This document shows positions 17,163-64,000 of a DNA stretch of 64,000 nt, one piece after another (positions within the stretch are counted from its first letter, which is position 1; each line of letters starts with the position of its first letter). The DNA is from Bdellovibrionota bacterium. GTDB lineage: Bacteria; Bdellovibrionota_C; UBA2361; JAAYZI01. Under the pieces are notes generated by a model. It saw only the letters and a program-made list of their open reading frames with translations, was not told where the DNA came from and did not search any database. Location of the stretch: the NCBI GenBank assembly GCA_050950765.1, contig JBMNIF010000001.1, forward strand, positions 416,001-480,000. Direction: 5' to 3'. Made by a program: the position numbers and the translations under genes.

Positions 17163-18685
<1,523 letters not shown>

Positions 18686-19373: not shown

Positions 19374-22492
<3,119 letters not shown>

Positions 22493-22956: not shown

Positions 22957-22992
22957 TCTTGGTGACTATAGTGGAGAGGCGTTCCCATCCCG
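22957..22992 (+). pseudogene. Truncated 5S rRNA 5' fragment within a duplicated leader
   Basis: TCTTGGTGACTATAGTGGAGAGG-CGTTCCCATCCCG equals the 5S 5' end with TTCCACC deleted; upstream AGAAAGTCACTGCGAAAGTAAGTGCACA is also duplicated. Confidence 0.8.
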
Positions 22993-23140
22993 CAGGTTGT
23001 CTGCTATGTCAACTTGGCAGAGCCAAGATTGACATGACGCGTAGGTGTTCGGGATGAGGTTTTGGTAGTTGGCAGGTTAGTTAAGAAAGTCACTGCGAAA
23101 GTAAGTGCACAGGATTTAATATGTAGGTGTGTGTTTACTT

Positions 23141-41199: not shown

Positions 41200-41600
41200 A
41201 TTGAGGGGTGCAGCCGACGGGGGTAGGGGGGTAAGACATTAGCTAGAAGTTAATTTTTTTATCTACTGGGCGCTAGGTAAATTGAGAGGAGCAGCAGAGT
41301 TAAGGGGGGTAGGGGGGTAAGATATTAGCTAGAAGTTAATTTTTTTATCTACTGGGCGCTAGGTAAATTGAGAGGGGCGGTGCAGCTAAGGGGGGTAGGG
41401 GGGTAAGAGACTAGCTAGAAGCCAAGTTTTTTTATTTACTGGGCGCTAGGTAAATTGAGAGGAGCAGCAGAGTTAAGGGGGGTAGGGGGGTAAGATATTA
41501 GCTAGAAGTTAAGTTTTTTATTTACTGGGCGCTAGGTAAATTGAGAGGAGCGGTGCAGCCGACGGGGGTTAAAACATCAGCTGGAAGCCAAGCTTTTATT
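41200..41600. repeat. 86-87-bp tandem repeat (~4.5 units) derived from the 3' end of the SH3 gene
   Basis: TACTGGGCGCTAGGTAAATTGAGAGG at 41264, 41350, 41437 and 41523; the last copy includes the stop codon of 41522..42295. Confidence 0.92.
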
Positions 41601-42295
41601 CCGCGTGATTCTACCATATACCAGTTTCCGCGTTGAAGTTTTACGGGGAGTACAGTTCCGATTGATAGAGCAAAGATGCGTCCACTTTCTCTAGATGGTG
41701 CGCTTCGTAAGACAGCCGGACTTTTTACAACCGATACTACGGCTGGAGTTTTAGCAGAAGGGTTTTTTAAAACAGTTCTGATGGTATGGAGAGTGTCGCT
41801 TATTGAAGGATCTTCTGTTGTGTAAGAATTAAAATTATAATCTCTATTTTTTTCTCTTAAAGCGCGAAGCTCTGCGTGCAGCGCTTTTATCTCTGCTGTA
41901 AGCTCTGCATTTTTATTGTACATGTAAACATTATCAGGGTGTGTTGAAACTTTTGTTATACGGGGAGTGACCTTTGAATGTGAAGGGGTAGGGGAAGTTT
42001 TTAGAGATGGTTTTGGAGGGAGTTCTTTTTTATTTTTGGAACTTTTATCTAAGCTCTTATCAGAATTTCTGTTTAAGTTTTCAGCGGGCTTTTCGTCAGC
42101 AGGTCCTCTATTTAATGAGCCTAAAATTTCATCTTCAAGTTGGATCAATTTATTATTCTGCTCTTCTAAGCTAAGAGAACCATCATCTTCTAAGCCGAGC
42201 ATCTCTAAGAGGTCATCAGCAATAACGGTGTTTGGGATAGAGAAAACCCCTATTTCGAGAAAAATTAAGGCAAAAATGAATTTTATTAGTGACAT
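41522..42295 (-). CDS. Secreted coiled-coil plus bacterial SH3 domain protein
   Basis: Signal peptide; C-terminal AVLRSAPS...LSIGTVL.V....GNWYMV....IKAWLP (SH3b). Confidence 0.8.
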   Translation of the reverse strand: MSLIKFIFALIFLEIGVFSIPNTVIADDLLEMLGLEDDGSLSLEEQNNKLIQLEDEILGSLNRGPADEKPAENLNRNSDKSLDKSSKNKKELPPKPSLKTSPTPSHSKVTPRITKVSTHPDNVYMYNKNAELTAEIKALHAELRALREKNRDYNFNSYTTEDPSISDTLHTIRTVLKNPSAKTPAVVSVVKSPAVLRSAPSRESGRIFALSIGTVLPVKLQRGNWYMVESRGIKAWLPADVLTPVGCTAPLNLPSAQ

Positions 42296-48066: not shown

Positions 48067-48492
48067 TTAGGGTTGTATATTTAAATCGTTAAAGAACGTT
48101 CCAATTAGGGATCGGAGGGCAAAGGCGCTTACGGCAACGACTAATAGCCCTAAGGCGGCTTTATAGTTACCGACTGCGGCGCTTAAGATCGCCATAATAC
48201 CGGCAGCGACCATAACCATAGCACCGAAGGAGCCTTCGATATAGGTTAAAATAGCATTTGTTGCATCAGCTAAACGTTCGTCATTATAGTTAATTGATAC
48301 AGTACCACCCATATAGCCATCAGCAACGACATTGAGAGAGAGTCCTACTATTAATAAGGTCACACCGCAGGCTAATAATATAAATTGTATCTGCAACTTT
48401 GTCGGTGCAACACAAGCAGAGGTGATTTTTTGGCAGATGTGAAGATATTTTTCTGCAATCTGTTTCTTAATAGTCATAATCAAACTCATCAA
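48067..48492 (-). CDS. VirB2/TrbC-like pilin
   Basis: Long leader, then two hydrophobic Gly/Ala-rich helices separated by GNYKA; lies at the end of the T4SS-like cluster. Confidence 0.6.
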   Translation of the reverse strand: MMSLIMTIKKQIAEKYLHICQKITSACVAPTKLQIQFILLACGVTLLIVGLSLNVVADGYMGGTVSINYNDERLADATNAILTYIEGSFGAMVMVAAGIMAILSAAVGNYKAALGLLVVAVSAFALRSLIGTFFNDLNIQP

Positions 48493-48650
48493 AAAGTGCT
48501 TCTTAAAGATCTTTTAAGGAGCGACTGATATTATAAGTTATAGCATAAAGGCATTATTTTCAATACCAATAGAGTGATACCAAGTGAGAGGTGCTAATAG
48601 GAATAGAAAACAACGCAATAAATTACAGATTATTTGGAATAAATTCTAAA

Positions 48651-49163
48651 TTATCCTTGAGCTTTTGATGTCAGTCCAGGGATGAGTTTGAGCGGATCTA
48701 GAGGCTTGCCGTTACGGCGAATTTCAAAGTGGAGGTGTGGTCCTGTGGATTGACCACTATTTCCTAATGTAGCTATGATCTGACCAGCAGCAACCTCTTC
48801 TCCGATTGATATCTTTATCTTATCAAGGTGTCCGTAGTGGCTAGTCATGCCTGAATTGTGGAGGATTACAACTAAATTTCCGTAACCTGCATAGGGATCA
48901 GCGAATACAACCTTACCCCTTCCTATCGCTCTAACGGGAGCTCCTAGTGGTGCTGCTAAATCGATACCGCTATGGTTACGTGTAACTTTAAAGATAGGGT
49001 GTCTTCTTGAGCCGAACTTACTGGAAAGGCGCGGACGTACTACGGGATAAACGAATGAAGGATCTGTTGTGGCTAAGATCTGAGGAGTGGGGAAGGCGTG
49101 ACTGTATTGTGGGATAAGTAGTATGACGAACAATGTAAGTATTGTTGTGAAGTACCCCCTCAT
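48651..49163 (-). CDS. Secreted M23 peptidoglycan endopeptidase
   Basis: HSGID, YGHL, STGPHLHFEIR; signal peptide. Confidence 0.95.
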   Translation of the reverse strand: MRGYFTTILTLFVILLIPQYSHAFPTPQILATTDPSFVYPVVRPRLSSKFGSRRHPIFKVTRNHSGIDLAAPLGAPVRAIGRGKVVFADPYAGYGNLVVILHNSGMTSHYGHLDKIKISIGEEVAAGQIIATLGNSGQSTGPHLHFEIRRNGKPLDPLKLIPGLTSKAQG

Positions 49164-49179
49164 CTTATCACCACAATAG

Positions 49180-50136
49180 TTAACGTTGTCTGATTAAGTC
49201 CATAGCAGCTTCTTCTACGGTACTACCAGCACTTCTTACTTGAACGGTACGTGATGGAACTGAACGGGGATCCCTACCAAAAGCTACGATATCTTTTGAA
49301 ATCCACGCTCTCTCTCCTGTGGGAGCAACAACTCTAAACCAGTCTCCAGACCTCGTCTCTATCGCTAAACGTGTGCCCTTCGCAATGGACATCATCGGAG
49401 AGTGATTCATGCCTGGACCTGCTCTAAGGTTGGCTTTATCAACAACCACCGTTGCGATAGGCATCTCTTCTGTTGTTTTGCGTGATTGTACGGGAGTTAA
49501 TAAAGATTCTCTTTCTTGATTAACTTGATTAACTCGGTTTCTGTTAGAACTTCTGTTGTATACCTGTTTAAGGGGTGGATTGATGCTCTTCCCAGAGCCC
49601 TGAATAATATCGCTCAACCTTTCGACCTCAGTTTCCGCAACCATTAATTTATTGCGTAACTCTATCACCTTATTTGATAGTAACTTTACTTGACGTTCGC
49701 TTTCTGCCAGCTGTTTTTCTAGTCGAGAATTTTTATTTTGGATCTCCGCCGATGATTTTTTTTGGAGATTGACCTCATCTTTTAAAGTGGAATTTTCACC
49801 ACGTAATTTTTTTATTTTATTATTAATCTGATTTAAAATTTCGTTAGAAGGTAGTCCGTCTTTCTCAAGGGCATTTTCTTTTTTAAGCTCTGTTTCCTGC
49901 GGCAATGCTTTTTGAACCAGATCGGATTTTGTATTACTTTTTAAGGATATTGTTGCTTTAGCTAAAGCTTGAGGAGCTTCCCAATTTGTTTCACTCAATA
50001 ATTTTTCTTCTTCGGCGAGAAGGGCAGCTTCTGCTTGATAAGGATCTAGGTTATCTACTTCAGCATATGCGGAGTTGCTGAAAAGTATAATTCCGAGAAA
50101 AAAACCTCTGCTAATGTATTTATTTAAATTAATCAC
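49180..50136 (-). CDS. Secreted coiled-coil plus SH3b protein
   Basis: Signal peptide, long coiled coil, ANLRAGPG...GTRL.IE...GDWFRV....GERAWI. Confidence 0.85.
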   Translation of the reverse strand: MINLNKYISRGFFLGIILFSNSAYAEVDNLDPYQAEAALLAEEEKLLSETNWEAPQALAKATISLKSNTKSDLVQKALPQETELKKENALEKDGLPSNEILNQINNKIKKLRGENSTLKDEVNLQKKSSAEIQNKNSRLEKQLAESERQVKLLSNKVIELRNKLMVAETEVERLSDIIQGSGKSINPPLKQVYNRSSNRNRVNQVNQERESLLTPVQSRKTTEEMPIATVVVDKANLRAGPGMNHSPMMSIAKGTRLAIETRSGDWFRVVAPTGERAWISKDIVAFGRDPRSVPSRTVQVRSAGSTVEEAAMDLIRQR

Positions 50137-50181
50137 GTTAACTACCCCTCGTTATGTATATACGGTGTGTCGAAACGTTCT

Positions 50182-50736
50182 CTATTGTTCATCCGAACTT
50201 TCTTGTTCCTGTTCGTCTAAAACTTTTTGTACCGTTTCTAAGGCAGCTTTATGACGCGCATCACGCTCTCTCTGGAGCATATCCTGCACTTCCTTAGGAG
50301 CGGCTATCCCCTTCATGACAATCTCTATGCCTGAAGTTCCGGAAGTTCCGACTAATACAGTTCCAACGTTCAGAGCTCTCTCTATAAGGGACTGCTCAGT
50401 CTCTACACTCCTAATATCTTCATATCTGATGCGAGTGATCCTCTGTTGAAGTGAAATTCTTCCAATTAAAGACTCTATTCCTTTAGGATCTACCACATAA
50501 CGAACATCGTAAATCCTCCAAGCTAGAACAACGAGGGTTATAAACGGAAAGAGCCATAAAAGGGGGAGTTTTAAGGTAACTGTATACGAAGTAGTGCTGA
50601 ATAACTCTCCGATTATGATTGAATTTGGAAGCTTTTTTGATAGCCAAACAGTACAGATAGCGGATAGGAAAAACAATATTATTCCCCATAATTCAGAACG
50701 CCAAGCCTTTGGTATTACAAGAGTACCTTTAATCAT
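50182..50736 (-). CDS. Membrane protein with bacterial PH (bPH_2) domain
   Basis: Two TMs; IRYEDIRSVETEQSLIERALNVGTVLVGT. Confidence 0.85.
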   Translation of the reverse strand: MIKGTLVIPKAWRSELWGIILFFLSAICTVWLSKKLPNSIIIGELFSTTSYTVTLKLPLLWLFPFITLVVLAWRIYDVRYVVDPKGIESLIGRISLQQRITRIRYEDIRSVETEQSLIERALNVGTVLVGTSGTSGIEIVMKGIAAPKEVQDMLQRERDARHKAALETVQKVLDEQEQESSDEQ

Positions 50737-50758
50737 TTCAAATAGTTCCGGAGTACGA

Positions 50759-51130
50759 TTAAAGAGAATTTAAGATATCTTCAAGTGAAGAAGGATCTGT
50801 TGAACCTTCTTGCGGACGTGCCTGTTTAGGTTGAACTTCTCTCTTTTTGGCACCGTCACTCTCCCCAAAAGGTAACAGTTTAAAAGGTTTTGAAGTATCT
50901 ATATCTCCAGCTGGTTGAAGGTTTCTTTCTTGTTGAGCTTGTTGTTGAACCGCAACTCTGTGTGTAACACCCTCATTTTGCTTAGGAATTACATTAGTAT
51001 TTGAGCTAACCTCAACTTTTCCGCCGCTTAACCTAAAAACGGAAAAGAGCACTGCCACCAATATGATAATTACTAAATGAAACTTATTGGTTAGTGGTGC
51101 AAGTAAATTTTTAGTACTTATAAATGCCAT
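50759..51130 (-). CDS. Bitopic hypothetical protein in the T4SS-like operon
   Basis: Single TM, disordered tail, co-oriented and tightly spaced. Confidence 0.7.
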   Translation of the reverse strand: MAFISTKNLLAPLTNKFHLVIIILVAVLFSVFRLSGGKVEVSSNTNVIPKQNEGVTHRVAVQQQAQQERNLQPAGDIDTSKPFKLLPFGESDGAKKREVQPKQARPQEGSTDPSSLEDILNSL

Positions 51131-51226
51131 CGATCACGATCTCCAATCCCTCTCCATACCTCCCACTCAATACCACAACTCAGACATTTATAGCAGATTG
51201 TGATACGGCTCTACCATAGAGATTAT

Positions 51227-51514
51227 TTATTTGTTGTTTGGATCTTTGTAATACCTCCAACGCCCCTGTCGTACCTCAACCACAGCTTGGTGCGCCGGTC
51301 TGTAATAAGTACCCTCAGGGTCGTAACCTGGCGGAATGTCAATAACATCAACCATTGGCGGTTCATATACAAACTCGACAGCCCCTGGATCAGGAACTAC
51401 GGTAACCTGTTCTTTAACGATCGGCCCACTTACTATTTCCTGCCTAGAAGAGCAGCCTATTACAGAAAATAGTGCTAGTATGGCGATAATATTGAGTATT
51501 TTTATCTTCTTCAC
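51227..51514 (-). CDS. Small proline-rich lipoprotein
   Basis: Lipobox VIGC; overlaps the stop of the traC-like gene. Confidence 0.75.
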   Translation of the reverse strand: MKKIKILNIIAILALFSVIGCSSRQEIVSGPIVKEQVTVVPDPGAVEFVYEPPMVDVIDIPPGYDPEGTYYRPAHQAVVEVRQGRWRYYKDPNNK

Positions 51515-54246
51515 AGTACATCCTCCATTATATCTGAAACAGCCTCTGCACTACTTGGTGCTTGCATGGTATCGTCAACAAATCTTTGCGGAACACTTTG
51601 GAATACTCGCATAGCTTTGGCACCATTAGGAGCTAATCTAATAGCCTCAGTAAATGCAGATAAAAATTCATTATCATACTTCTCTAACAGTTCGGCAAAG
51701 AGTTGGTTATCGTCTCCGTTATTCGTACTTGCCCAATAAAAAGCCGGTTCTATCGGAAGAACCAAAGCTCCTTCTCCGATATCGGACAAAAAGTAGAACT
51801 GACTTTCTAACCCGATTACAGTTCTCAAACGGAGGATAACGTTAGCTTGTTGCTCTGTAAGGTTAAAGGCTTCCGCTGTGTAGTGGAATTTACTGGGATC
51901 TTGCCGGAGGAAGATCTTATGTGCGCTGTTTTGAACGATAGCTTGTCCACCTGCGCCAACGTAAAAATCTTCGCCGGATTGTGATGCCGCAATAACGATA
52001 CCTTTCCTTTTACGATACAACCTAAAAGCAGTTTCAATCGTATTACCCGCTGTTTTTCCGATTAAATCATGAGCTTCATCAAATACCAATACTTTACGGG
52101 TATCAATTTCATTAACATCGTTCATGACGCTATCAGCCCAAAGCATAGCGATCTTTAGGAAAACACGTTGCAGATCGGGGTTGCGACTAAGGGCTTTTAA
52201 GTCAAAAACTATAAAGCGCTCCTTTAGGCTTAAAGATCCCGGCCTATCGAAGAATCGAGCATAAGTGCCTTCTCCGTAATAGTCTCCGACCAGAACTGCG
52301 ATTTTCTGTCTGCGTAAAGCATCGGGTTCATTTTCATTAACCTTTTTAGGAGCACGTAAAACGGCAACGATATCACTTAAGATAAACTCTCGACGCATCG
52401 GACCACTTCGGTAAATTCTATGAGCTTCAACCACAGAATCCATTACGGCAGCTCTATCAAGTCGATCTAACGCTGTATGCGCATCTGCCGCCATATCCAT
52501 AATAACATCTGCTGACATATCGATTAGATCTTTATAATCTTCGTTAGTAGTATCAGGTGGTGTTTCTCCCAAGCGTGCTAAAAAGTTCATAGCAGGAGCA
52601 CGTGACGGTGTTGCTTCATAAACTCGACCGCCGAACAATTTAGCAACTTTGTCAAATCCGCAAGGATGTCCTGGCATACCTTTATCAAAGACGAAGGTAA
52701 TCGGTGGTCTCTCTAAGATCCTGCCATCAGATCGGGTAGCGTAATGTCCACGCATCATAGTGATGATTAAGAAACAGAGTAGGTACGATTTTCCAGAACC
52801 GGAAACTCCACTAATTAAAAGGTTGGGAGCAAGGTTAGAGTCGTAAAGGTCGAAGCCGACAAGTTCTCTGTTCCACAAACTTGGTAGTACGATTAAAGGT
52901 GAAGGGCTCCCTTGCCAGTTACCCCAGACTGGGAAAAGTCTGACTGCTCGTGAAGAACGCATCGTTGTAGTCCAGCCTGAACCATCTGTGGTCGGATCAT
53001 AACAACCTGGAAGGCTGTTAATGATGACGGCTAGATCGGAGATTTTGTGTTCCATACCGCGCGCACCGTGCAGTTGCGGAAACGTTGCGATCGCTTCGGA
53101 GGCAGCACGAATAGCTTCCTCTCTAGTTTGGCAGATGAAAGTTTGATGTACCCCGACACGCACTATCTGCGAGGTGTTGTTGTAAAGTTCGTTACGAGCC
53201 GCTCTGATAGCACCGATCTGATGTTGAACTTTCTGATCGGATCTTCCGAAAAAGTTCATTTCACGTAGACCCAAAAGGGAATCAAGCCCATCAAGTCTCT
53301 GAATCTGCTTCTCTTGCGTATCTTTGGAATAAGTTACACTAAGAATATTCTCGTAGGCAGAAGATTGTAACGGCGTGATCATTAATGGCAAGCACTGTTT
53401 CGGAGGTTTTACCATTGAAACAGATCGAAAGTATCTACCATCTTTTTTAATGATGCCGTTTTCTGGATGCTCAGCGTGTGTCTCCGAAAGTTGGTTTGAA
53501 AGGTATTCATCTGGATCAAAAACAGGCACGGGGATGCTGGAAGTTCTACCACGTTTAAACTTTCCTGATTTCGTACTTCTACGATTTAATAACGGATAAA
53601 GAAGGTTGATTAGCCCTTGCCCATCAACGCGTGTCGGTGAAAATCCGATATCCCTTAATTTGATAGCGCTACCTTCAACTATTCCTCTGAACTTGTTAGC
53701 GTATTCAAGGTATTCAGAACGTCTTTCTGCAGCGGAGATACCGACCTTACCAGTGAAAAAAATCTTTAGAGTTTGAGTCATAGATGACAAGAAGCCAACA
53801 TCTTTCCAAGGTGGATCGTATCTAAAGCAGACTATTAAACGCATGGAGCGGGGGCGGCGTGCAAAGTTAGCACTGGTTGAGGTGCGGCGAATTGATCGGA
53901 TCCAACGTCTCGCCATCCAACCAGCGGCTCCACTTGTTGGAAAACGGTTCATGGAGTCACGCAAAACATTTCCGACATCAAAGGTGGTGACCCAAACCCA
54001 CTGTGCGCTGATGGTGTGATCTAAAGAATCCATCATCTCTTGAATGTTTTCACAGATCTGAAACGCTTCAACGTCAGAGATGGTACAGATCCATTTCGGC
54101 TGAAGTTCCCAAATAGACCAGATTGACGCATCCGCATGGACAAAAAGCTGCTGTTCTACATCCCATTTAGCAAAAGGTAGTAGAGAGTTGAAGAGCTTTT
54201 CATCCTTAAATAACCTCTCTCTTTGTAAGCGATTTATACCGCCCAT
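51511..54246 (-). CDS. traC: VirB4/TraC-like T4SS ATPase
   Basis: 911 aa; Walker A ISGVSGSGKS, FVFDKG, YARFFD, VFDLKAL, Walker B VFDEAH, RLYRK...ASQS. Confidence 0.88.
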   Translation of the reverse strand: MGGINRLQRERLFKDEKLFNSLLPFAKWDVEQQLFVHADASIWSIWELQPKWICTISDVEAFQICENIQEMMDSLDHTISAQWVWVTTFDVGNVLRDSMNRFPTSGAAGWMARRWIRSIRRTSTSANFARRPRSMRLIVCFRYDPPWKDVGFLSSMTQTLKIFFTGKVGISAAERRSEYLEYANKFRGIVEGSAIKLRDIGFSPTRVDGQGLINLLYPLLNRRSTKSGKFKRGRTSSIPVPVFDPDEYLSNQLSETHAEHPENGIIKKDGRYFRSVSMVKPPKQCLPLMITPLQSSAYENILSVTYSKDTQEKQIQRLDGLDSLLGLREMNFFGRSDQKVQHQIGAIRAARNELYNNTSQIVRVGVHQTFICQTREEAIRAASEAIATFPQLHGARGMEHKISDLAVIINSLPGCYDPTTDGSGWTTTMRSSRAVRLFPVWGNWQGSPSPLIVLPSLWNRELVGFDLYDSNLAPNLLISGVSGSGKSYLLCFLIITMMRGHYATRSDGRILERPPITFVFDKGMPGHPCGFDKVAKLFGGRVYEATPSRAPAMNFLARLGETPPDTTNEDYKDLIDMSADVIMDMAADAHTALDRLDRAAVMDSVVEAHRIYRSGPMRREFILSDIVAVLRAPKKVNENEPDALRRQKIAVLVGDYYGEGTYARFFDRPGSLSLKERFIVFDLKALSRNPDLQRVFLKIAMLWADSVMNDVNEIDTRKVLVFDEAHDLIGKTAGNTIETAFRLYRKRKGIVIAASQSGEDFYVGAGGQAIVQNSAHKIFLRQDPSKFHYTAEAFNLTEQQANVILRLRTVIGLESQFYFLSDIGEGALVLPIEPAFYWASTNNGDDNQLFAELLEKYDNEFLSAFTEAIRLAPNGAKAMRVFQSVPQRFVDDTMQAPSSAEAVSDIMEDVL

Positions 54247-54294
54247 GTTTTAATCTCCTCTGCAACCTGCAATAACCATAAGTTTCCTTTGCGG

Positions 54295-54798
54295 TTATTG
54301 CTTTATAACCTCATTAAGACTCGGCTCGACATCCCGTTTTGGTAAAAACCTTATCTCTTTATTTTGATGATCTAGCGCCACCTTTATATCGGCACTTTTT
54401 TCAATAGCAGTTGCTATCTCTGTAATAGTTCCGATAGTGGTCAGTGTAAGCTTTTTATCTGCTACAATACTTGAGCAGTAGGTGCGATACCGTGCCGTAG
54501 CTCCTAAAACCAATATAGCTTCACTTAAAGGAGCGTCCTTTACACTAAAATCTAAGATCGGCACAACCAGATCTGCCTTTGATGATTCAATACGACGATC
54601 TGGAGTCATTTCAGGTGGACGAACCCAACGTGTTGCACCGTAAACAGGTTGTGGCGGAAGTTGTCGTGTCGCCATTTTATAGGTGCGAGGCTTCTTTTTT
54701 GTATCCCACTGTGGACCTTCACGACTAGAGCAACCTGAAAATATCAGTGGCACAAGAAGTAAAGAGCTGAAGATGTATGAGTTCCGTATTAGTTTCAT
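54295..54798 (-). CDS. Lipoprotein with secretin-N0/DotD-like fold (tentative)
   Basis: Lipobox FSGC; FSVKDAPLSEAILVLG...Y...LTL...GTITEIA..I resembles STN/N0 domains. Confidence 0.55.
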   Translation of the reverse strand: MKLIRNSYIFSSLLLVPLIFSGCSSREGPQWDTKKKPRTYKMATRQLPPQPVYGATRWVRPPEMTPDRRIESSKADLVVPILDFSVKDAPLSEAILVLGATARYRTYCSSIVADKKLTLTTIGTITEIATAIEKSADIKVALDHQNKEIRFLPKRDVEPSLNEVIKQ

Positions 54799-54805
54799 TT
54801 ATATC

Positions 54806-55261
54806 CTATTTCTTAATATCCCCATCAAAAACGTAAGGAATATTACTTCCTCCTCCACCTCTCTTTAGTTGATTCTCAAGTTCAAAAGCATCCGTTACTG
54901 CCCATCTATCTTTTAAAACTTTTAAGTAATAATAGTGTGACGGGACTAAGTCACCGTGCTTATTTAGATGATCCGGAATCCACATTAAACGTACCACCGC
55001 TGGTTGGATGACGGGCTTGTCAGGACTGGGGGAGTTGGCACGTTGATAACTTGACATCTGCTCTAAGGCTTGTCTGGCGCTATCTTCCTTCATCCCACTA
55101 CCATTTAAGGCGTGATCATTAGCTTCGCCTTGTAGTGCAATTTTTGATGGTTCTTCATAAAACGGGTTTACTACCTTCCCCATGAATCCGCATCCACTAA
55201 GCGCTAACATTGCAAAAACTATTATACTTAAATTAATCTTGTTCATTGTTGTCAGCTCCAT
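54806..55261 (-). CDS. traV: TraV-like T4SS outer-membrane lipoprotein
   Basis: Lipobox LSGC; PAVVRLMWIPDHLNKHGDLVPSHYYYLKV....W matches the TraV motif. True start may be 55246. Confidence 0.8.
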   Translation of the reverse strand: MELTTMNKINLSIIVFAMLALSGCGFMGKVVNPFYEEPSKIALQGEANDHALNGSGMKEDSARQALEQMSSYQRANSPSPDKPVIQPAVVRLMWIPDHLNKHGDLVPSHYYYLKVLKDRWAVTDAFELENQLKRGGGGSNIPYVFDGDIKK

Positions 55262-55293
55262 ATAAAAACTATCAAATTGCTAAGCGACCTTAA

Positions 55294-56451
55294 TTAATCA
55301 AGGGAAACAAATACAGCCTCCTCTTCTCCTTCAGTTAAAGCATCATACAGTCCGTCTATGGTCTTGCTTGAAGAAAAAACTGCTGTTGCTGTACGACCGG
55401 AAAGCACTCTTACGTGCGGTACCATCATATCAGCGCGCTCTTCAATAAAATCAGCCCATTTTTCACCTGCTTTTTCAACACCTTTACCTGCACCGTATTC
55501 CCACAACTCACCCTCAACAATTCTGCTAACTCCGTAAGCGCTGGAATAGGTATTAACCTGCGACTCTGATAACCCTTCGCCAACACCCTCGACCGTGCCA
55601 GCCAAGAGAGAGCCAGCCATAGCTCGTCCGATAGGATCAATTAAGATCCCCTCCATTCCGGATAAACCATCTTCGCCAACAACCCAACCATCAACAGGAA
55701 CTATTTTGCGCGCACCGTTAGGTAGGCTTATATTAAGGGTGTGTAAACGGAAAAGTGCTCTTTGATCGGTGAGAGAACCTTGAGCGGCGGCTAGTAGACG
55801 TGCATTCCCAAGGGGAAGTGTTGTTCCATCAGGTCCAATCACATCATCAATCAACTCCATAACGACGGGGTAGGGGGTGCCATCAACAGGGGCATGCACA
55901 CCAGCTAGTAACTTGACTTTAACAGAATCTCCTGTGCCGATGACTGCTAAGCGTTGCTCTTTCGGGGGAGCGGGGATCTCAACTTCTGAGTTTTCAAGCT
56001 CTCCAAAAGATTCTAACCCCTCTGGAACTTGTTCAATAATCTCTTCACCTTCAATATCAACAGGTTGCTCCTGTTTTATGCTGGCGTTAGTAACGGTGTT
56101 TTCAAGATCTGCCATTTTTTCAAGCATCCGCTTCATAATCGCAGCAGTTTGCTCTTCATTTCTCGCTATCTTTTCACTCATCTCTTGGAGATTTTGAGCG
56201 TTCTTTTGCGCTTCGCTCTGTGCCTTATCTATCTTCTGACCGTAAGCGATCATAAAGTCGTTACGAGTTTCTTCATTGGCAGTAGCACCTGTGTCAACTA
56301 TGATATCAGGCTCTACGTGAATCCTCTGTTTTTTTGCATCACCAAAGATGCCCCAAACTAAGAAAATTACGATTACACACGCTATAACTTGTGTTTTTCG
56401 ATCTTCTCTTAGTTTTAAAATTAGATCATCGATACTTTGTCTAAGAGCCAT
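55294..56451 (-). CDS. traB: TraB/VirB10-like T4SS core protein
   Basis: TM plus coiled coil plus LLAGVHAP...PVVMEL...GSLTDQRALFRLHTL...VDGWVVGEDGLSGMEG. Confidence 0.85.
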   Translation of the reverse strand: MALRQSIDDLILKLREDRKTQVIACVIVIFLVWGIFGDAKKQRIHVEPDIIVDTGATANEETRNDFMIAYGQKIDKAQSEAQKNAQNLQEMSEKIARNEEQTAAIMKRMLEKMADLENTVTNASIKQEQPVDIEGEEIIEQVPEGLESFGELENSEVEIPAPPKEQRLAVIGTGDSVKVKLLAGVHAPVDGTPYPVVMELIDDVIGPDGTTLPLGNARLLAAAQGSLTDQRALFRLHTLNISLPNGARKIVPVDGWVVGEDGLSGMEGILIDPIGRAMAGSLLAGTVEGVGEGLSESQVNTYSSAYGVSRIVEGELWEYGAGKGVEKAGEKWADFIEERADMMVPHVRVLSGRTATAVFSSSKTIDGLYDALTEGEEEAVFVSLD

Positions 56452-56471
56452 TTTACAACCTCCTACCTTGA

Positions 56472-57269
56472 TTACCTGTAACTTTTTGCTTTTGTGACCA
56501 CATAAACTTTAGTCTTATCTTTTCTGGCGACCTCTTGTTCTATCGTTAGTGGTCGTGGGGCTAGTTCCCACTTCTCAGCAGAGATGGCACGAGTTCCATC
56601 AAGTCTGAAAGTAGCGGGATTAAGTTTCTGACTCTGATCCAATAAATTTTCAGCATCGATAACGTAACCCCATAAATTAGGCCCAATAAAGATCTTGTCG
56701 ACAGTCGCTCTTATGGCACCATCGTGTAGAACCGATTCTCCTTTAAATCTGTTGCTGACTCTGTAACCAGGGATCCCCTTTTTCCCAAACTCAGCAACGA
56801 GGATCATCTCTCTAACAAAACCGCTCACTGTTGAAGAAGGAGCGTATTCAAATTTCCCCTCTTCGTAGTCTTTTAACTCTTCCTCTTCATTGATGGTATT
56901 ATCACGACGATCTTCAATCTTTATTACATCATCACGGGGGTTTTCTTGGTTTGCTAAACGTACCCTAATAGAATAAGAACGCCCATCGTCGAGTCTAACG
57001 ATGATGGCCTCTCCTTTTACGTTAAGACCTTCTGTGGCAAAAACTATTAAATCTGTATCTTTTCTATCGAGGTGCAGATTTGAAAGCTGCTTCTTATAGC
57101 CACCTTTGATAATGCCAGGGAATTGAATCTGCGTCGGCTCTCCAGGGGTAACGTTAATCGTTACCTCAGAATCACTATATTCTACGTCACGTGCTGAAGC
57201 TGTATTGACCAGCAAAAAGGCTCCAACTATACCGATTAAAAAGCCACTGGTTATTGTTGAATATTTCAT
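56472..57269 (-). CDS. traK: TraK/VirB9-like T4SS core protein
   Basis: Signal peptide; EPTQIQFP; C-terminal ENLL.QSQKLNPATF....AIS....ELAP...TKVYVV. Start placed at the ATG after GGAG (ORF track gives 57314). Confidence 0.78.
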   Translation of the reverse strand: MKYSTITSGFLIGIVGAFLLVNTASARDVEYSDSEVTINVTPGEPTQIQFPGIIKGGYKKQLSNLHLDRKDTDLIVFATEGLNVKGEAIIVRLDDGRSYSIRVRLANQENPRDDVIKIEDRRDNTINEEEELKDYEEGKFEYAPSSTVSGFVREMILVAEFGKKGIPGYRVSNRFKGESVLHDGAIRATVDKIFIGPNLWGYVIDAENLLDQSQKLNPATFRLDGTRAISAEKWELAPRPLTIEQEVARKDKTKVYVVTKAKSYR

Positions 57270-57291
57270 TGTCATCTCCACACTTTTATAA

Positions 57292-57964
57292 TTATTCAGG
57301 TGACCCTGTTTCAATGTTTACAATCATAATTCCATAATCGTTATACTTAACGTTTCTAGGGAATGTTTTCATTGTGATGTAATATTGCATAGTATCTGGG
57401 GGTAGTGGTTCTCCACCTATCGTTTTATGACGTTCCCCAACCGTCCTCATCTTTACAAGACCACTTTTTTCTTCTCTAGTAATGGTAGTTTTAGTCGGGT
57501 CTATATAATAAACTTGAGTTCTGCTAGTCTGTTTAATGGCTTCAAGATCTTTTCCTAAAACTTCCTCTTCAAACATACTTAATACAGGGGGCTCAAGCAT
57601 TTCAGCTGCGGCTAAAAACTGTTTTTCAGCTACGTAAGGTTGATAAGTGGCTACTAAATTGATGAATTGCTCTCCAACTGTTAAAAACTCACTATCTTGT
57701 ATTTCATCAGCAGAATAATGCCCAGGAAGTGGTCTAGCCGGTACATTTAAGTTTATTACTCTATTTGACCACATCGTGATGGCGAAGATTAGAGCGATAA
57801 CTGTGGCAGGGATCTGAAGGAGTGCCATAGCACGCCAAAGTAAAGCTTGCTCCCTATAATTTTCCCACAACCTAAGGGTGTCGTTATCTTTTTTTGATTC
57901 GCGAAATCGCGAATCATTGATCAACCTTTTTTGCCGCTTCTGTTATAGGTTTTTTGTCATTCAT
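57292..57964 (-). CDS. traE: TraE-like bitopic T4SS protein; 5' end apparently frameshifted in an A6 tract
   Basis: TM, then SEFL..GEQFINLVATYQPYVAEKQF; lies between the traL- and traK-like genes. RBS-bearing ATG at 57964 is out of frame with ORF 57292..57924. Confidence 0.65.
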
Positions 57965-58023
57965 CTAAAATCCTTATCTAAATCCTAATTATTACAAAAC
58001 ATCTTCCTGTTCCGTTACGCTCC

Positions 58024-58449
58024 TCAAAAGTAATACTTCTCCGCTTCACTGAACCTTGATTCATTGACAAAAACTTTATCCAATTGCAGTTGTAAATATT
58101 TGCAATCTTTTTTCACATCTTCCAGCTCTTGATAAGGAGCGCCGCTCCAAACCGGTTGCAACTTAGCTGGTGGTGGTATATCAACTGGTGTAAAGCCAAG
58201 AATCGACATCACATGATTTCTAAGACCACGTTCTTGGTCGGGATATATCTGGCGCAGTCTGGCTAATGTAATGGGAAATCCAACCAGAACTATAATGATA
58301 AGAGGCATATAACGTCCCCAATTATTTTTCGGAAGGAATAATTCAACAAATAACATTGCAAATATTAATCCTGAAGCCCACTCCATCGGTTTTGCACCGA
58401 AGAAGGTCCAATCTTCATTTAGTCTTGGAATAACCTGTCCATCATCCAT
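58024..58449 (-). CDS. traL: TraL/VirB3-like membrane protein
   Basis: IPRLNEDWTFFG...EW, two TMs, first position in the L-E-K-B-V-C order. Confidence 0.6.
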   Translation of the reverse strand: MDDGQVIPRLNEDWTFFGAKPMEWASGLIFAMLFVELFLPKNNWGRYMPLIIIVLVGFPITLARLRQIYPDQERGLRNHVMSILGFTPVDIPPPAKLQPVWSGAPYQELEDVKKDCKYLQLQLDKVFVNESRFSEAEKYYF

Positions 58450-58499
58450 ATCTAAGCTACGCCTAAAAAATAATTACCCTAAACAGTTATCTACAAACG

Positions 58500-59171
58500 T
58501 TATCTGATTGCTCCATTCAAAAGACGGGAATCAGGAGTATAGGTGGTTCCTGTTTCACTTTCTCTCGGTTTAGGAGCTAGAATTCTATTTAAGTCTTCTG
58601 CACGGTCTAAAATGCTGTTGCGCCAAGCACTTATATCCACAAGGATTTGAGGGTTGGCGAGACGAACACCTAAATCAAACTCTCTAACTGCTGTAAGTAG
58701 TAGATTCCTCGCCTGTGCATAATGTTTTATCCCGACCTTTAAGGTTTTCCCTTTTACCTCAGTGATGGGAGCGCCGATCTTTGTTAACTCTTTCGGCTTT
58801 AGGTATTCTTCATTGATAAAGCGTGGTGCTGCCACAAAATCAACTCCTTGTTGATTGGCTTGTGGTTGTGGATCTAAGATCCTTTCCAGATCTTCTGCAC
58901 GATCTAGTAAAGTGTTGCGCCATTGCTGAATATCTAAAAGTAGTTGTGGATCTACGAATTTCACGCCGAGATCAAACTCTTGGACGGCCTTTATAATAAA
59001 ATGTCTGGTACGTGCATAATGTCCGGAAGCAGCTGCCAATGACCTGACATCCGCACCTTCTTCCGAAACTTCTATAGGCTGGTTTTCTTCTTGAGCATTA
59101 ACAGGAAGAGAAAAAAAAGGTACGAATAAAAATGTAACGGCAACAACAACGCTCGATTTTAAAAAAACCAT
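58500..59171 (-). CDS. Secreted protein with a duplicated ~60-aa domain; first gene of the T4SS-like operon
   Basis: HYARTRHFIIKAVQEFDLG...WRNTLLDRAEDLERILDP versus HYAQARNLLLTAVREFDLG...WRNSILDRAEDLNRILAP. Confidence 0.8.
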   Translation of the reverse strand: MVFLKSSVVVAVTFLFVPFFSLPVNAQEENQPIEVSEEGADVRSLAAASGHYARTRHFIIKAVQEFDLGVKFVDPQLLLDIQQWRNTLLDRAEDLERILDPQPQANQQGVDFVAAPRFINEEYLKPKELTKIGAPITEVKGKTLKVGIKHYAQARNLLLTAVREFDLGVRLANPQILVDISAWRNSILDRAEDLNRILAPKPRESETGTTYTPDSRLLNGAIR

Positions 59172-59439: not shown

Positions 59440-61163
59440 CTAGCCTTCCAATTAGGACACCCACTTTTAACCTCCGTGCAGATCTAACTAGTCCTGTCTT
59501 CAGTTGCAGCCCGTTCTGCTGTCCCTAGTGGGTGGTGGTAAATTCCCCCCGTCTAGATCTAGCTGACTCGTTTTGTAGCATCAGCCCGTTCGATCGTCCT
59601 TAGAGGGTGCTGCCTTTTACCTCCGTAAAAACCTAGCCAGTTCGTTTTGCAGTATAGCCTCCAATTAGGACACCCACTTTTACTGGTGGGTGGCACCAAA
59701 TTCCAAACCTTAAGATTTTTGCTAACATCCTGATATCATTGGTAGCCCTGAAGGGTGGCACCAAATTTTTAACCTTCGTCCAGATCTAACCTCCAATTAG
59801 GACACCCACCTTTTACCTCCGTCCAGATCTAGCCTTCCAATTAGGACACCCACCCTTAGCTGAAGGGTGGCACCAGATTTTTCCGTGCAGATCTAACTAG
59901 TCCTGTCTTCAGTTGCAGCCCGTTCTGCTGTCCCTAGTGGGTGGTGGTAAATTCCCCCCGTCTAGATCTAGCTGACTCGTTTTGTAGCATCAGCCCGTTC
60001 GATCGTCCTTAGAGGGTGCTGCCTTTTACCTCCGTAAAAACCTAGCCAGTTCGTTTTGCAGTATAGCCTCCAATTAGGACACCCACTTTTACTGGTGGGT
60101 GGCACCAAATTCCAAACCTTAAGATTTTTGCTAACATCCTGATATCATTGGTAGCCCTGAAGGGTGGCACCAAATTTTTAACGCCTTAAGATTTTTGCTA
60201 ACATCCTGATATCATTGGTAGCCCTGAAGGGTGGCACCAGATTTTTAACCTACGTCCAGATCTAGCCTTCCAATTAGGACACCCACCCTTAGCTGGTGGG
60301 TGGCACCAAAACTGCCAATCCAAATGCTAGCCAAACGAGCTGCAAATCTGAAGGGTGGCACCAAAACTGCCAATTCTGGGCTTTTGCTAACATCTTGATA
60401 TTGTTAGCTATTGTAGTTTTAGAGTTTGGGTGTCCTATTTGTGAAGCGTCCTTGCCTGCTGTCCGTTACTGAAGGGTGGCACCAGTGACAGCCCCAAACA
60501 AAGAAGGGTGGCACCAGATTTTTAACCGTGCAGATCTAACTAGTCCTGTCTTCAGTTGCAGCCCGTTCTGCTGTCCCTAGTGGGTGGTGGTAAATTCCCC
60601 CCGTCTAGATCTAGCTGACTCGTTTTGTAGCATCAGCCCGTTCGATCGTCCTTAGAGGGTGCTGCCTTTTACCTCCGTAAAAACCTAGCCAGTTCGTTTT
60701 GCAGTATAGCCTCCAATTAGGACACCCACTTTTACTGGTGGGTGGCACCAAATTCCAAACCTTAAGATTTTTGCTAACATCCTGATATCATTGGTAGCCC
60801 TGAAGGGTGGCACCAAATTTTTAACCTTCGTCCAGATCTAACCTCCAATTAGGACACCCACCCTTAGCTGAAGGGTGGCACCAGATTTTTAACCTCCTGC
60901 TGTCCGTTACTGGTGGGTGGCACCAAAACTGCCAATTCTGGGTTTTTGCTAACATCTTGATATTGTTAGCTATTGTAGTTTTAGAGTTTGGGTGTCCTAT
61001 TTGTGAAGCGTCCTTGCCTGCTGTCCGTTACTGAAGGGTGGCACCAGTGACAGCCCCAAACAAAGAAGGGTGGCACCAAATTTTTAACCTCCGTAGAAAC
61101 CTAACCGATCCGCTCTGCAGTTGCAGCCCGTTCTGCCGTCCCTGAAGGGTGGCACCAGATTTT
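59440..61163. repeat. Mosaic REP-like array 3 with three apparently identical ~300-bp blocks
   Basis: About 17 GGGTGGCACC (plus strand) and GGACACCC/GGGTGTCC copies; a block starting CCGTGCAGATCTAACTAG occurs at 59474, 59883 and 60526. Confidence 0.9.
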
Positions 61164-61295
61164 GGGGAATCGCAAGGGTTTTTATAGAACGATGTTTTCT
61201 TTGTGGTGTTGTAGGTAGAGTTGCAGCCAAAGAGGCATCCTGCAAGAAAAGACCTTGCAAGACCTCCTTCTATGATATTTTTATATAAAAAACAG

Positions 61296-61703
61296 TTACT
61301 TAAGAAGTCGAATAGCTTCGCGGCACAGTTGTTCAAAGCGGATCGGCTTGTTAATAAAGGCATCGGCCTTTATCCAGCGCCGCTCTTCGATAGTTGAGGC
61401 ATCAAAGTGAAGAGCTGTTTTGTTATTAACATCGGAAACTATAATGATAGGGAGATCTGGTGCCTGTTTTTTAATAGTATAGCAGAGTGTAAACCCTTTA
61501 TCCTCAGTCTCTAACATCACCTCCGTTACAACTAAATCCGGTTTAGCACCATTAAAGGCTTTTTCTGCCTCCGCAGCACTAGAAGCGGTTATGACGTGAG
61601 CTCCAACTTTTTCAAAAGCTTCTTTTCCAGAGGCTACAAATTGAGTGTCTTTATCAACAAGTAAGATGTTTTTCCCTGATAATTTAGAACATGCGCAGCT
61701 CAT
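61296..61703 (-). CDS. Single-domain response regulator receiver with Glu at the phosphoacceptor position
   Basis: ILLVDKD, PDLVVTEVML, PIIIVS, FINKP. Confidence 0.85.
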   Translation of the reverse strand: MSCACSKLSGKNILLVDKDTQFVASGKEAFEKVGAHVITASSAAEAEKAFNGAKPDLVVTEVMLETEDKGFTLCYTIKKQAPDLPIIIVSDVNNKTALHFDASTIEERRWIKADAFINKPIRFEQLCREAIRLLK

Positions 61704-61747
61704 AATATCTCCTAAAACTAAAAAACGTATCCGAAAAGCTAAATTAA

Positions 61748-61923
61748 AAAGTTAAAAAGCCCTTTTTTCCCCTCAATAATTTAAAATCAATCAACTTCGT
61801 TAACACACCACCATAAGTTTCAATTCCGAGAAAGTTAAAAAGCCCTTTTTCCCCTCAATAATTTAAAATCAATTAACTTCGTTAACACACCCATAAGTTT
61901 CAATACCGAGAAAGTTTAAAAGC
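61748..61923. repeat. ~83-bp tandem duplication (2 units plus a fragment)
   Basis: AAAGTTAAAAAGCCCTTTTTTCCCCTCAATAATTTAAAATCAAT...CCATAAGTTTCAAT.CCGAG occurs twice. Confidence 0.9.
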
Positions 61924-61947
61924 TTTAATCAATCCTCTTAATTCAAA

Positions 61948-61980
61948 GTAGGGGAGGTGACTTTATCTCATCTCCCCTAC
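61948..61980 (-). terminator. Terminator-like hairpin after hydA
   Basis: GTAGGGGAGGTGA/TCATCTCCCCTAC inverted repeat, followed by TTT on the minus strand. Confidence 0.75.
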
Positions 61981-61993
61981 AAAGGGGCTTTTA

Positions 61994-63709
61994 TTAACGA
62001 GCTTTATAATGGGTGTGTAGTAAGTGATGACTTTTTTCACCCAAAGGCTCTCCTAAGAACTCAGCATAAAGTTTCTTAATCGATTCATTGCTATGACTGG
62101 TTCGAACACTCCCCTCACTATCTAACTTATACAACCCCTGCATACGACTTTTGATCTTTACTAGGTCTGTTCCTAACGGTTGTCCGCCACCGCCGACGCA
62201 ACCTCCAGGGCAGGTCATGACCTCAATAAAGTGTAGGTCAGGACGCTTGCCGTCTTTTACATCAGCTATGACCTGTTTAACATTACCGATACCACTAACA
62301 ACAGCAACTCCGACCTTTAGTCCGTTAATGTCGAGATGTGCTTCCTTTACGCCATCAAGTCCACGAACCGCTTCAATCTTAAGGTCTGCAAGCTCACTTC
62401 CTGTAATCAAGTGATAAGCAGTACGGACAGCAGCTTCCATTACACCACCCGTTGCTCCGAACAATTTACCAGCAGTGGTACGCTCACCGAATGGGAGGTC
62501 AGCTTCACTCGGCTCTAAGTTCTTTAAGTCTATTCCAAACTTGTGAATTAAACGTGCCAATTCTCTTGTTGTTAGAACTGCATCCACATCGGGCGTGACA
62601 GAGTCGCCTAACATTTCAGGTCTGGCACATTCGAACTTCTTGGCTGTACACGGCATTATACTGACAGAGAATATTTTAGACGGATCGAGCCCTTCCTTCT
62701 CTGCAAAGTAACTCTTTATAACAGCACCCAACATCTGTTGCGGGCTTTTACAGGTCGAAAGATTAGGAAGCATCTCCGGATAGAACTGCTCCATGTACTT
62801 AATCCAACCAGGTGAACAACTGGTGAACATCGGAAGCACGCCACCTGTTGTGATACGTTTGACGAGCTCACTCGCTTCCTCCATGATCGTTAAGTCTGCT
62901 GAGAAGCTGGTGTCAAAGACCTTGTTAAAACCGATCTGACGCAAAGCTGCCACCATCTTACCAGCAACATCAGCACCCCCTTCAACACCGAAATCCTCAC
63001 CAATCGTAACGGAGACAGCAGGTGCATGTTGTACAACAACCGTTAGATCTGGATTGTTGATAGCATCCATAACCTGTTTGACATAACTTCTTTCACGTAG
63101 AGCACCTGTGGGACAGACAGTTATACACTGACCACAATTGATGCAGGTACTTTTATTTAAGCCTTCGTTGAAAGCCGTTCCAACGATGGTCTTACTACCT
63201 CGTCCGATATAATCGATAGCTGAAACACCGATCACCTCTTCACATACCCTGACACACCGTCCGCACAAAATGCACTTATCAGGGTCTCTAACAAGTGATG
63301 GGCTGGAGAGATCTATTTCATGATGAGACCTTTCACCTTCGAACCTCTTTTCACGAACTCCTAATTCACCAGCTAGAGATTGTAATTTACAATTGCCGTT
63401 ACGTGTGCAGTACAAACAATCATCAGGATGATTCGCCAATAATAGCTCAATAATCGTCTTTCTAGCCTGCAGAACTCGGGGTGAGTGGGTTTTTATCTTC
63501 ATCCCTGGATGAACAGGATAAGCGCAACTAGGGATAAGCGCTGGTCGTCCCTCCATTTCAACTACGCACATACGACAAGCTCCGCTCGGGAAGAAATTTT
63601 CCATATGACAGAGCGTCGGAATAGAAATTCCAGCGCGTTTTAAAACATCAAGGAGGATCTCTCCCTGCTCAGCTTCTATCGTGCGGTTATTTACTTCGAT
63701 TGTAATCAT
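61994..63709 (-). CDS. hydA: [FeFe]-hydrogenase group A catalytic subunit (HydA/HndD-type)
   Basis: H-cluster motifs FTSCSPGW, IMPCTAKKFE, EVMTCPGGCVGGGGQP; N-terminal 2Fe2S and 4Fe4S domains; start set at the ATG of MITIEVN. Confidence 0.95.
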   Translation of the reverse strand: MITIEVNNRTIEAEQGEILLDVLKRAGISIPTLCHMENFFPSGACRMCVVEMEGRPALIPSCAYPVHPGMKIKTHSPRVLQARKTIIELLLANHPDDCLYCTRNGNCKLQSLAGELGVREKRFEGERSHHEIDLSSPSLVRDPDKCILCGRCVRVCEEVIGVSAIDYIGRGSKTIVGTAFNEGLNKSTCINCGQCITVCPTGALRERSYVKQVMDAINNPDLTVVVQHAPAVSVTIGEDFGVEGGADVAGKMVAALRQIGFNKVFDTSFSADLTIMEEASELVKRITTGGVLPMFTSCSPGWIKYMEQFYPEMLPNLSTCKSPQQMLGAVIKSYFAEKEGLDPSKIFSVSIMPCTAKKFECARPEMLGDSVTPDVDAVLTTRELARLIHKFGIDLKNLEPSEADLPFGERTTAGKLFGATGGVMEAAVRTAYHLITGSELADLKIEAVRGLDGVKEAHLDINGLKVGVAVVSGIGNVKQVIADVKDGKRPDLHFIEVMTCPGGCVGGGGQPLGTDLVKIKSRMQGLYKLDSEGSVRTSHSNESIKKLYAEFLGEPLGEKSHHLLHTHYKAR

Positions 63710-63734
63710 AACGTTTAACCCTAATGACAGACCT

Positions 63735-64000
63735 TTATTTATTACATACAATGGCGTTAAATTTGCATTTTTCTATGCAGGCGCCACATGCGATACACTT
63801 GTCTTGATCGATTGTGTGAGGTTGCTTAACGGTTCCCGTAATTGCAACGACAGGACAACTCCTTGCACACGCCGTACACCCCGTACATTTATCTGCAAGT
63901 ATTTCAAACTTACGCAAACTCTTACACTCACCGGCAGGACAGCGACGCTCAAAGACGTGAGCTTCATATTCATCACGGAAGAACTTAAGGGTACTAAGAA
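63735..64000 (-). CDS. C-terminus of a NuoF-like NADH-binding hydrogenase subunit (HydB/HndC); runs off the window end
   Basis: [27 protein letters not shown] followed by a 2x[4Fe-4S] domain (CTGCTAC...CP; CIACGAC...C). Confidence 0.88.

Follow-up and report, generated by a model that had tools for sequence, protein, structure and literature searches.

A vertically inherited F-type type IV secretion system across a Bdellovibrio-related phylum, with an HD-fold protein in the position of the relaxase

Introduction

The described systems closest to the one reported here are the conjugative type IV secretion systems (T4SS) of SXT/R391, IncA/C and IncH, which combine an F-type (MPF_F) channel with a MOBH relaxase, and that of the gonococcal genetic island (MPF_F, MOBH), which serves DNA release. 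Rickettsiales possess a vir T4SS of the VirB/P-type, and the T4SS of Patescibacteria is monoderm-type machinery that, to our knowledge, has no F-type pilus genes. A membrane-associating N-terminal helix is described for the gonococcal island relaxase (PMC6736028), and four tandem virB6 paralogues for Anaplasma (PMC7648143). In what a 2012 survey says on protein delivery, this function is given as shown for MPF_T and MPF_I only (PMC3548315). Literature searches yielded no published description of the system of the uncultured, Bdellovibrio-related phylum studied here, and paper supplements may list such systems.

The core operon

The window (the whole stretch of 64,000 nucleotides that was analysed) carries 14 ORFs at 48067–59171, all co-oriented on the minus strand and with intergenic gaps of −23 to 158 bp, in agreement with the number, order and orientation given by an earlier, sequence-only reading. 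The flanks and similar composition described there were likewise confirmed, with uppP on one side, [FeFe]-hydrogenase genes on the other beyond a 1.8-kb repeat array, and a GC content of 0.419 for the operon vs 0.40–0.415 for the contigs. The mosaic repeat array itself (59450–61200, no strand) lies outside the machine and occupies the place where relatives have their coupling-protein operon.

TraC, TraB, bPH_2, SH3 and M23 were matched over the Pfam cut-offs, and TraE, TraK and TraV below them. The gene that always comes first in the operon encodes an exported protein of unknown function (58500–59171). The duplication of its domain, seen earlier from the sequence, was confirmed at 46% over 78 aa. 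It is confined to this genome and was rejected as a family trait, all 41 of 41 homologues having a single copy. Next comes a TraL/VirB3-like membrane protein (58024–58449), a label taken only from position, size and one hydrophobic stretch, the profile comparison (E 0.1) not being the best among 11 references. It is followed by TraE/VirB8-like (57292–57924; Pfam TraE E 0.028, hhalign E 0.002) and TraK/VirB9-like (56472–57314; Pfam TraK_C E 1.3e-4, hhalign E 4e-6) proteins, by TraB/VirB10 (55294–56451; Pfam TrbI over cut-off, hhalign E 5e-31), and by a TraV/VirB7-like lipoprotein with a lipobox (54806–55261; Pfam TraV E 0.0025, hhalign weak at E 0.043). The lipoprotein at 54295–54798, previously called N0-like, does have a lipobox, but it is only possibly DotD/N0-like, DotD being matched in Pfam (E 3e-4) in one of 20 homologues and a PDB sequence search with it returning no match.

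The TraC/VirB4 ATPase (51511–54246) has intact Walker A and B motifs and exceeds the cut-off of Pfam TraC_F_IV; its best NCBIfam family is TIGR02746 (E 1.6e-53; 182 bits vs 95 for VirB4_CagE), yet under the cut-off. Downstream lie a small lipoprotein (51227–51514), present in two copies in other orders, a single-pass membrane protein of unknown function (50759–51130), and a Pfam-matched bPH_2 membrane protein (50182–50736) that is absent from the locus in some relatives. Pfam also identifies a coiled-coil protein with an SH3b domain (49180–50136), a probable cell-wall binder, and an M23 peptidase (48651–49163), a probable VirB1 substitute. The last gene (48067–48492) encodes a TraA/VirB2-like pilin (profile-profile E 0.022; TrbC/VirB2 matched weakly in two of six homologues), with a further copy on another contig (C3) of the same genome.

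Machine parts at other sites

None of the 48 window proteins compared with NCBIfam (20 proteins, and 28 of 33 further ORFs at E 1e-20) belonged to a relaxase, coupling protein, integrase or partition family, as had been stated for these 64 kb. One IS1634 transposase was recognised in the scan. The claim of a stand-alone, reduced core without DNA-transfer genes had to be given up: four further sites in this genome hold the gene of a TraD/DotL-like coupling ATPase next to that of a partner, a second ATPase gene of VirD4-like type, and two operons resembling traF-traH-traG and traW-traU-trbC. The T4SS genes are thus split over five chromosomal sites with housekeeping genes around them and with intact frames. 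In relatives, the coupling-protein, F/H/G-like and W/U/TrbC-like genes adjoin the core operon, and in one genus the entire set is one contiguous cluster.

TraF (hhalign E 1.2e-5) and TraU (E 5.7e-5; missed by Pfam TraU) were each the best of 13 references, and TraG gave a weak TraG_N match and hhalign E 5.6e-4. The candidates for TrbC (E 0.014), TraW (E 0.19) and TraH (E 0.2) have fitting gene sizes at the expected positions and were negative in family searches; the E-values for W, U and TrbC follow more than one try, support coming only in a deeper round after first rounds with 5–8 sequences had been unsupportive. Pfam and TIGR searches for TraH, TraN, TraU and TraW were negative, their sensitivity being too low for this lineage, and no informative Pfam family was found for the W/U/TrbC/H-like genes or for the ORFs that follow traG. 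For TraN, PF06986 was unmatched in this genome and no candidate stood at the expected position, in a search type (Pfam) that also missed TraU. A TraU-like profile matched 40 of 78 genomes and none of 20 in other orders, where the gene may have been lost or have diverged. Taken at the level of profile matches, and of position for TraL, this gene content places the system among the F-type (MPF_F) T4SS, with a TraC-type VirB4, a TraB/K/V core, a TraE/L/G scaffold, and predicted TraF and TraU.

The TraD/DotL-like ATPase was matched in 38 of 41 genomes (one being a weak cross-match), with DotL as its sole PDB sequence match (E 1e-11). The second, VirD4-like ATPase may belong to the same machine: it co-occurs in 37 of 41 genomes, but adjoins traG in only one of 20 regions. 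Another reading, a retractile pilus that serves chiefly for adhesion to surfaces, prey or a host and to which the coupling ATPases are accessory, would be in keeping with the retained W/U/TrbC/F/H-like pilus-dynamics genes, with the frequent multiplication of pilin genes (two in this genome, three in G002), and with one genus (2/2 genomes) that has no match to the TraD/DotL-like ATPase or its partner. We regard it as improbable: both coupling ATPases are conserved at 60–70% identity with intact Walker motifs, and the genus that lacks a match to the first still has the other.

Distribution and vertical descent

TraC is a single-copy gene, detected in 121 of the phylum's 124 genomes and in all 73 high-quality ones; for comparison, an RpoB fragment was found in 108 of 124 at E 1e-100. 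Two small genomes have TraC without the surrounding operon. Of 38 splits, 16 are common to the TraC tree and the RpoB tree (random mean 0.2), with a patristic rho of 0.88; the two trees conflict in six split pairs at support 0.95 and in none at 0.99. Because TraC is this widespread and its tree follows that of RpoB, we consider the F-type T4SS to be vertically inherited and not an ICE. The distribution is neither patchy nor that of a horizontally spread, single bounded element, and the same-ICE arrangement with att sites that would have spoken against the earlier proposal was not found. That proposal, a domesticated chromosomal T4SS variant, is hence upheld, the SH3 and M23 accessory genes being conserved as well; the functions suggested with it would be attachment, protein delivery or contact with prey.

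An ICE or an integrated plasmid, either active or decayed only recently, might be suspected from the contiguous set of the one genus and from the traF-H-G operon, which in this genome begins beside a tRNA-Met gene. This reading is largely refuted by the phylum-wide, tree-congruent TraC and by the five sites amid housekeeping genes, where frames are intact and neither relaxase nor integrase was found.

The gene in the relaxase position

The partner gene, present in 114 of 124 genomes, directly precedes the TraD/DotL-like ATPase gene and encodes an HD-fold protein with an N-terminal membrane anchor. In plasmid loci, mobH likewise lies immediately before traD (9 of 11). A fold search with the partner core returned the HD superfamily in nearly all of the best 50 rows, including YhaM (Z 8.2, rmsd 4.2, 161 aligned) and 3kq5 (Z 6.3, rmsd 4.3, 155 aligned), and these same two are the only matches under E 0.01 of a MOBH profile against the PDB. 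HD folds are common in general. Direct comparison of the partner with the MOBH (TraI_2) profile was not significant (hhalign E 0.63 and 0.34, with shallow references).

The 3H and HD metal-binding motifs are absent: A-x-E-A-G-K aligns to L-x-H-D-x-G-K, no histidine is invariant and none is kept beyond 24 of 33 sequences. The relaxase searches covered MOBH (0/78 genomes), MOBF, MOBP and MOBQ (0/5 genomes each) and, without a positive control, MOBC. From fold, position and missing motifs, the gene in the relaxase position probably encodes a dead MOBH relaxase. DotM is a less likely identity: there was no PDB sequence match, DotM was absent from the best 50 rows of four fold searches (the C-terminal domain not being queried alone), an Atlas search was blank, and the HD fold fits better.

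Whirly gene and surface-side parts

A gene with a Whirly/PUR fold (TM 0.67 to a Whirly cluster) directly follows the TraD/DotL-like ATPase in 14 of 20 loci, and many arginines of the partner are invariant (R378, R400, R408, R429 and R574). Both point to nucleic acid and count against protein delivery. The main rival is accordingly nucleic-acid transport by the host, which would either release or transfer ssDNA of its chromosome, as for the gonococcal island, or take up DNA or RNA from a contacted cell. In this reading the strand would be held at the membrane by the HD-fold partner and coated by the Whirly protein. Also in its favour, DNA secretion by Neisseria gonorrhoeae in vivo is described as not abolished by 3H or HD motif mutation, and there is a MOBH3 clade without the motifs (PMC6736028). 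Against it, the MOBH, MOBF, MOBP and MOBQ searches recognised no nicking enzyme, a membrane-anchored relaxase would presumably be unable to pilot DNA through the channel, and the Whirly gene is left behind when the ATPase operon relocates, as in this genome. We hold this rival to be rather unlikely, if well ahead of the adhesive pilus.

The traG arrays and the rapid change at the surface side fit interaction with a target cell, a further point against nucleic-acid transport. Five tandem traG/virB6 paralogues occur in all eight genomes inspected from other orders, and divergence is much quicker at the surface side than in the ATPases, with identities of 15–18% for TraH-like and 19–32% for TraG-like proteins vs medians of 62–65% for the ATPases. 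In eight relatives, traG is followed by twelve large ORFs that are unrelated to one another and for the most part have no predicted signal or membrane segment. They are candidate substrates only and have no homologue in this genome, which also weighs against protein delivery.

A putative delivery machine

Contact-dependent protein delivery is, on this gene content, the best reading, with a probability of about 0.5; the machine now probably passes cargo to contacted cells rather than spreading a mobile element. Further points against it are the survey statement on MPF_T and MPF_I, the six conflicting split pairs, the genomes that lack a match to the TraD/DotL-like ATPase or the operon around TraC, and, for the relaxase ancestry, the non-significant MOBH comparison and the commonness of HD folds. 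The phylum's ancestor would have captured a complete or nearly complete MPF_F conjugation machine and retained it as an organelle of its own for contact-dependent delivery. Pili of TraA, built by TraL/E/K/B/V/C with TraW/U/TrbC/F/H, and the fast-evolving TraG would touch the cell of a prey or host, its wall would be opened by the M23/SH3 pair, and the TraD/DotL-like ATPase would load proteins as substrates into the channel. Having lost its metal ligands and gained a membrane anchor, the former MOBH relaxase would now be a fixed partner of this ATPase, as DotM is for DotL.

If true, an F-type conjugation machine has been exapted over a whole phylum, a use outside MPF_T and MPF_I, the only systems for which the 2012 survey cited above lists protein delivery. 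It would suggest a route from conjugation to secretion in which the relaxase is kept as a dead scaffold and not deleted, and would give a first concrete handle on the cell–cell interaction of this phylum, naming proteins that can be tested without culture. More tentatively still, we propose a T4SS class that would define the phylum and descend from a conjugative element of the F-type/MOBH kind. Its relaxase would have been domesticated and now be a membrane-anchored subunit of the coupling complex without catalytic activity; further parts would be two coupling ATPases, a Whirly-fold protein that binds single strands, and traG/virB6 arrays like those of Rickettsiales. Such a machine might inject proteins into prey or hosts or exchange nucleic acid with them.

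Comparison with known systems

With the SXT/R391, IncA/C and IncH systems the phylum shares the traL-E-K-B-V-C order, blocks that resemble W-U-trbC and F-H-G, and, immediately before an SXT-TraD-like ATPase, a gene with an HD fold. It differs in being a chromosomal core trait, in the absent HD/3H motifs and the N-terminal membrane anchor, in having no recognised TraN, TrbI or peptidase, and in its extra lipoproteins, bPH_2, SH3 and M23 proteins; its TraC, at ~25% identity to plasmid TraC, forms a long branch of its own. The gonococcal system, too, is F-type, chromosomal and in the service of its host, but it resides on an island with active relaxase and oriT, whereas the system described here is phylum-wide and has lost the motifs.

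Dot/Icm resembles it in the DotL match of the ATPase, the only one in the PDB, in an adjacent gene for a membrane-anchored partner and in a possible DotD-like lipoprotein; in contrast, the partner here matches HD folds and the channel is F-type, not I-type. Like the Rickettsiales vir T4SS, it is host-owned and scattered over several loci, with five traG-like copies to compare with the tandem virB6 paralogues; since that system is VirB/P-type and this one F-type, the likeness would be convergent. As with the Patescibacteria, finally, a T4SS has been retained as a lineage trait, there in host-dependent bacteria (PMC12102498; PMC12857230).

Core operon and its surroundings

The window (G000:C1:416001-480000) belongs to a 2.64-Mb genome (94% complete). 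ORF calling recovered the 14 co-oriented genes that the sequence-only reading had placed at 48067..59171; all fourteen ORFs are on the minus strand, the first starting at 59171 and the last ending at 48067, and the gaps between them are short. Family searches identified TraC, TraB, bPH_2, SH3 and M23 proteins and gave weak matches to TraK, TraE and TraV, while profile-profile comparison against plasmid references supported TraB, TraK and TraE, with weak support for TraV and the pilin; traL was assigned from its position. Elsewhere the window has typical chromosomal content, including flagellar genes, ppk1, ahcY, an ABC transporter and one IS1634.

The coiled-coil SH3 gene has a paralogue outside the operon (41522-42295), and a Group A [FeFe]-hydrogenase operon with a response regulator (61296-64000) suggests an anaerobic lifestyle. 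Mosaic arrays of repeats that share a 10-base core occupy 59450-61200, ~9200-9830 and ~25900-27600; genome-wide the core is present as 967 copies in 131 clusters. The region at ~17000-23000, with GC up to 0.46-0.51 and devoid of long real ORFs, is probably an rRNA operon. A kinase-like/HEAT protein gene adjoins the operon's pilin end in many relatives and is found in this genome near a second pilin gene (G000:C3:120474-122822; L117:5475-7823).

Distribution and descent

Full-length TraC was matched in 39 of 41 relatives (62-82% identity), and its residues 1-549 in 121 of the 124 genomes of the class, including all 73 of high quality; the phylum-level search covered the same 124 genomes. An RpoB fragment was matched in 108/124 at E 1e-100. 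Gene order was conserved across the inspected relatives' loci (three partly overlapping sets). In 41 genomes chosen to span families, with TraC and RpoB both intact, the two trees had 16 of 38 splits in common (random mean 0.2), 12 of them at support 0.95, with a patristic rho of 0.88; six conflicting pairs reached 0.95 (four involving one long-branch genome) and none 0.99. Twelve lineage TraC sequences separated from eight plasmid ones on a branch of 1.5 substitutions per site (UFBoot 100; unrooted, small sample), the closest plasmid matches showing ~25% identity. The F-type T4SS is lineage-wide and vertically inherited, and the proposed test of the TraC tree against the species tree, run with RpoB, bears out the idea of a domesticated chromosomal system. 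One genus in which neither the TraD/DotL-like coupling ATPase nor its partner was matched and two small TraC-only genomes (1.2 and 1.8 Mb; L094 and L095) count against universality; in the latter a divergent TraC is kept, with other core operon genes not detected around it. In a further single-contig genome (L058; 82% complete), the W/U/TrbC and F/H/G blocks are present and TraC and both ATPases unmatched.

Components encoded elsewhere

The operon had been described as stand-alone and lacking DNA-transfer genes; this did not survive the genome-wide search, which located coupling ATPases on contig C3 and traF/H/G- and traW/U/trbC-like operons on C2. The traF-, traH- and traG-like genes (G000:C2:942683-948875) were assigned by family and profile comparison, TraG-like proteins being matched in 62 of 66 genomes. 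The traW-, traU- and trbC-like genes (G000:C2:328412-331775; hhalign E 0.19, 5.7e-5 and 0.014) each scored highest with the expected family among 13 references. Both blocks lie side by side in 7 of 20 fetched regions and, in two relatives (G002 and G033), between coupling and core operons. The family search of the window's genome did not find TraN. The genus of G002 apparently carries two traU/traG-like sets, one in the main cluster (L054) and one elsewhere (G002:C73).

All 18 other-order genomes covered by the TraG-like search gave 4-10 matches; in the eight inspected, five tandem traG paralogues (21-41% identical) follow a traH-like gene, with traF also seen in seven. PMC7648143 reports expression of four virB6 paralogues in Anaplasma and poorer growth of a virB6-4 mutant. 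Twelve large same-strand ORFs downstream of traG in eight same-order relatives, which in sequence comparison matched neither each other nor the window's genome, are candidate cargo.

Coupling ATPases and the partner protein

A 677-aa partner precedes a 756-aa coupling ATPase at G000:C3:380118-384432. The ATPase scored best with SXT TraD and TrbC, had DotL as its sole PDB match and carries a Walker A motif identical in all 35 aligned sequences. In regions chosen by hit coordinates, 14 of 18 genomes from the same order have the pair directly before the core operon and divergent from it, and 15 of 20 from other orders have the partner there; in the window's genome that position is taken up by a repeat array together with hydrogenase genes. 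A second, VirD4-like ATPase from family searches (G000:C3:505498-507858; L051:2499-4859), matched in 37 of 41 relatives, may be a component of the same machine. Its C-terminal domain (residues 660-786) has no Pfam family. In proteins of other phyla it stands alongside ClpX, RNA polymerase alpha C-terminal, TPR or methyltransferase domains; judged from sequence, it is a mobile, unnamed module.

Relaxase searches matched MOBH in 0 of 78 genomes and MOBF, MOBP and MOBQ in 0 of 5 each, as did MOBC (0/5) in a search lacking a positive control. In 9 of 11 plasmid loci mobH comes immediately before traD, the position that the partner gene holds here. The partner's model (pLDDT 85) predicts hydrophobic N-terminal helices. 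For its core, spanning residues 178-475 (pLDDT 88, pTM 0.88), nearly all of the best 50 structural matches are HD-superfamily proteins, with modest Z for YhaM (8.2) and 3kq5 (6.3); Foldseek gave no match below E 0.001. The MOBH profile retrieved exactly YhaM and 3kq5 from the PDB below E 0.01. PMC6736028 places 3KQ5, a TraI_2 domain, in MOBH3, a clade without the motifs, and shows that cleavage in vitro depends on the 3H and HD motifs whereas DNA secretion in vivo does not. The partner alignment has several invariant arginines and no invariant histidine, and its A-x-E-A-G-K pairs with the relaxase H-D-x-G-K in a direct, non-significant profile comparison. The partner family, with 287 clusters at 50% identity, is a narrow one. 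Its descent from a MOBH relaxase is somewhat more likely than not.

Function

The favoured reading, with about an even chance (roughly 50%) of being right, is that the machine assembles F-type pili, which would bring it into contact with a target cell, and that the ATPase and its anchored partner would select protein substrates for passage into that cell. Predation is an assumption taken from the phylum name. Nucleic-acid transport is a serious if less likely rival because of the arginine-rich partner and a 163-aa Whirly/PUR-fold gene just beyond the window (C1:484124-484615; Atlas fold match, TM 0.67), which at 14 of 20 loci is the next gene after the ATPase. Adhesion alone fits worse than protein delivery or nucleic-acid transport and is improbable, and an ICE, fitting worse than the same two, is very improbable.

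Comparison with known systems

We found no published description of this F-type system in searches that covered mainly non-subscription papers; 'conjug' is absent from the examined texts of Bdellovibrionota papers, as is 'Bdellovibrio' from the available text of PMC12857230. The lineage system is a real F-type T4SS. The MPF_F component set used here is that of PMC4027160, coupling partners are taken as in PMC12857230, and PMC3548315 is the source for T4SSs lacking a relaxase and for exaptation.
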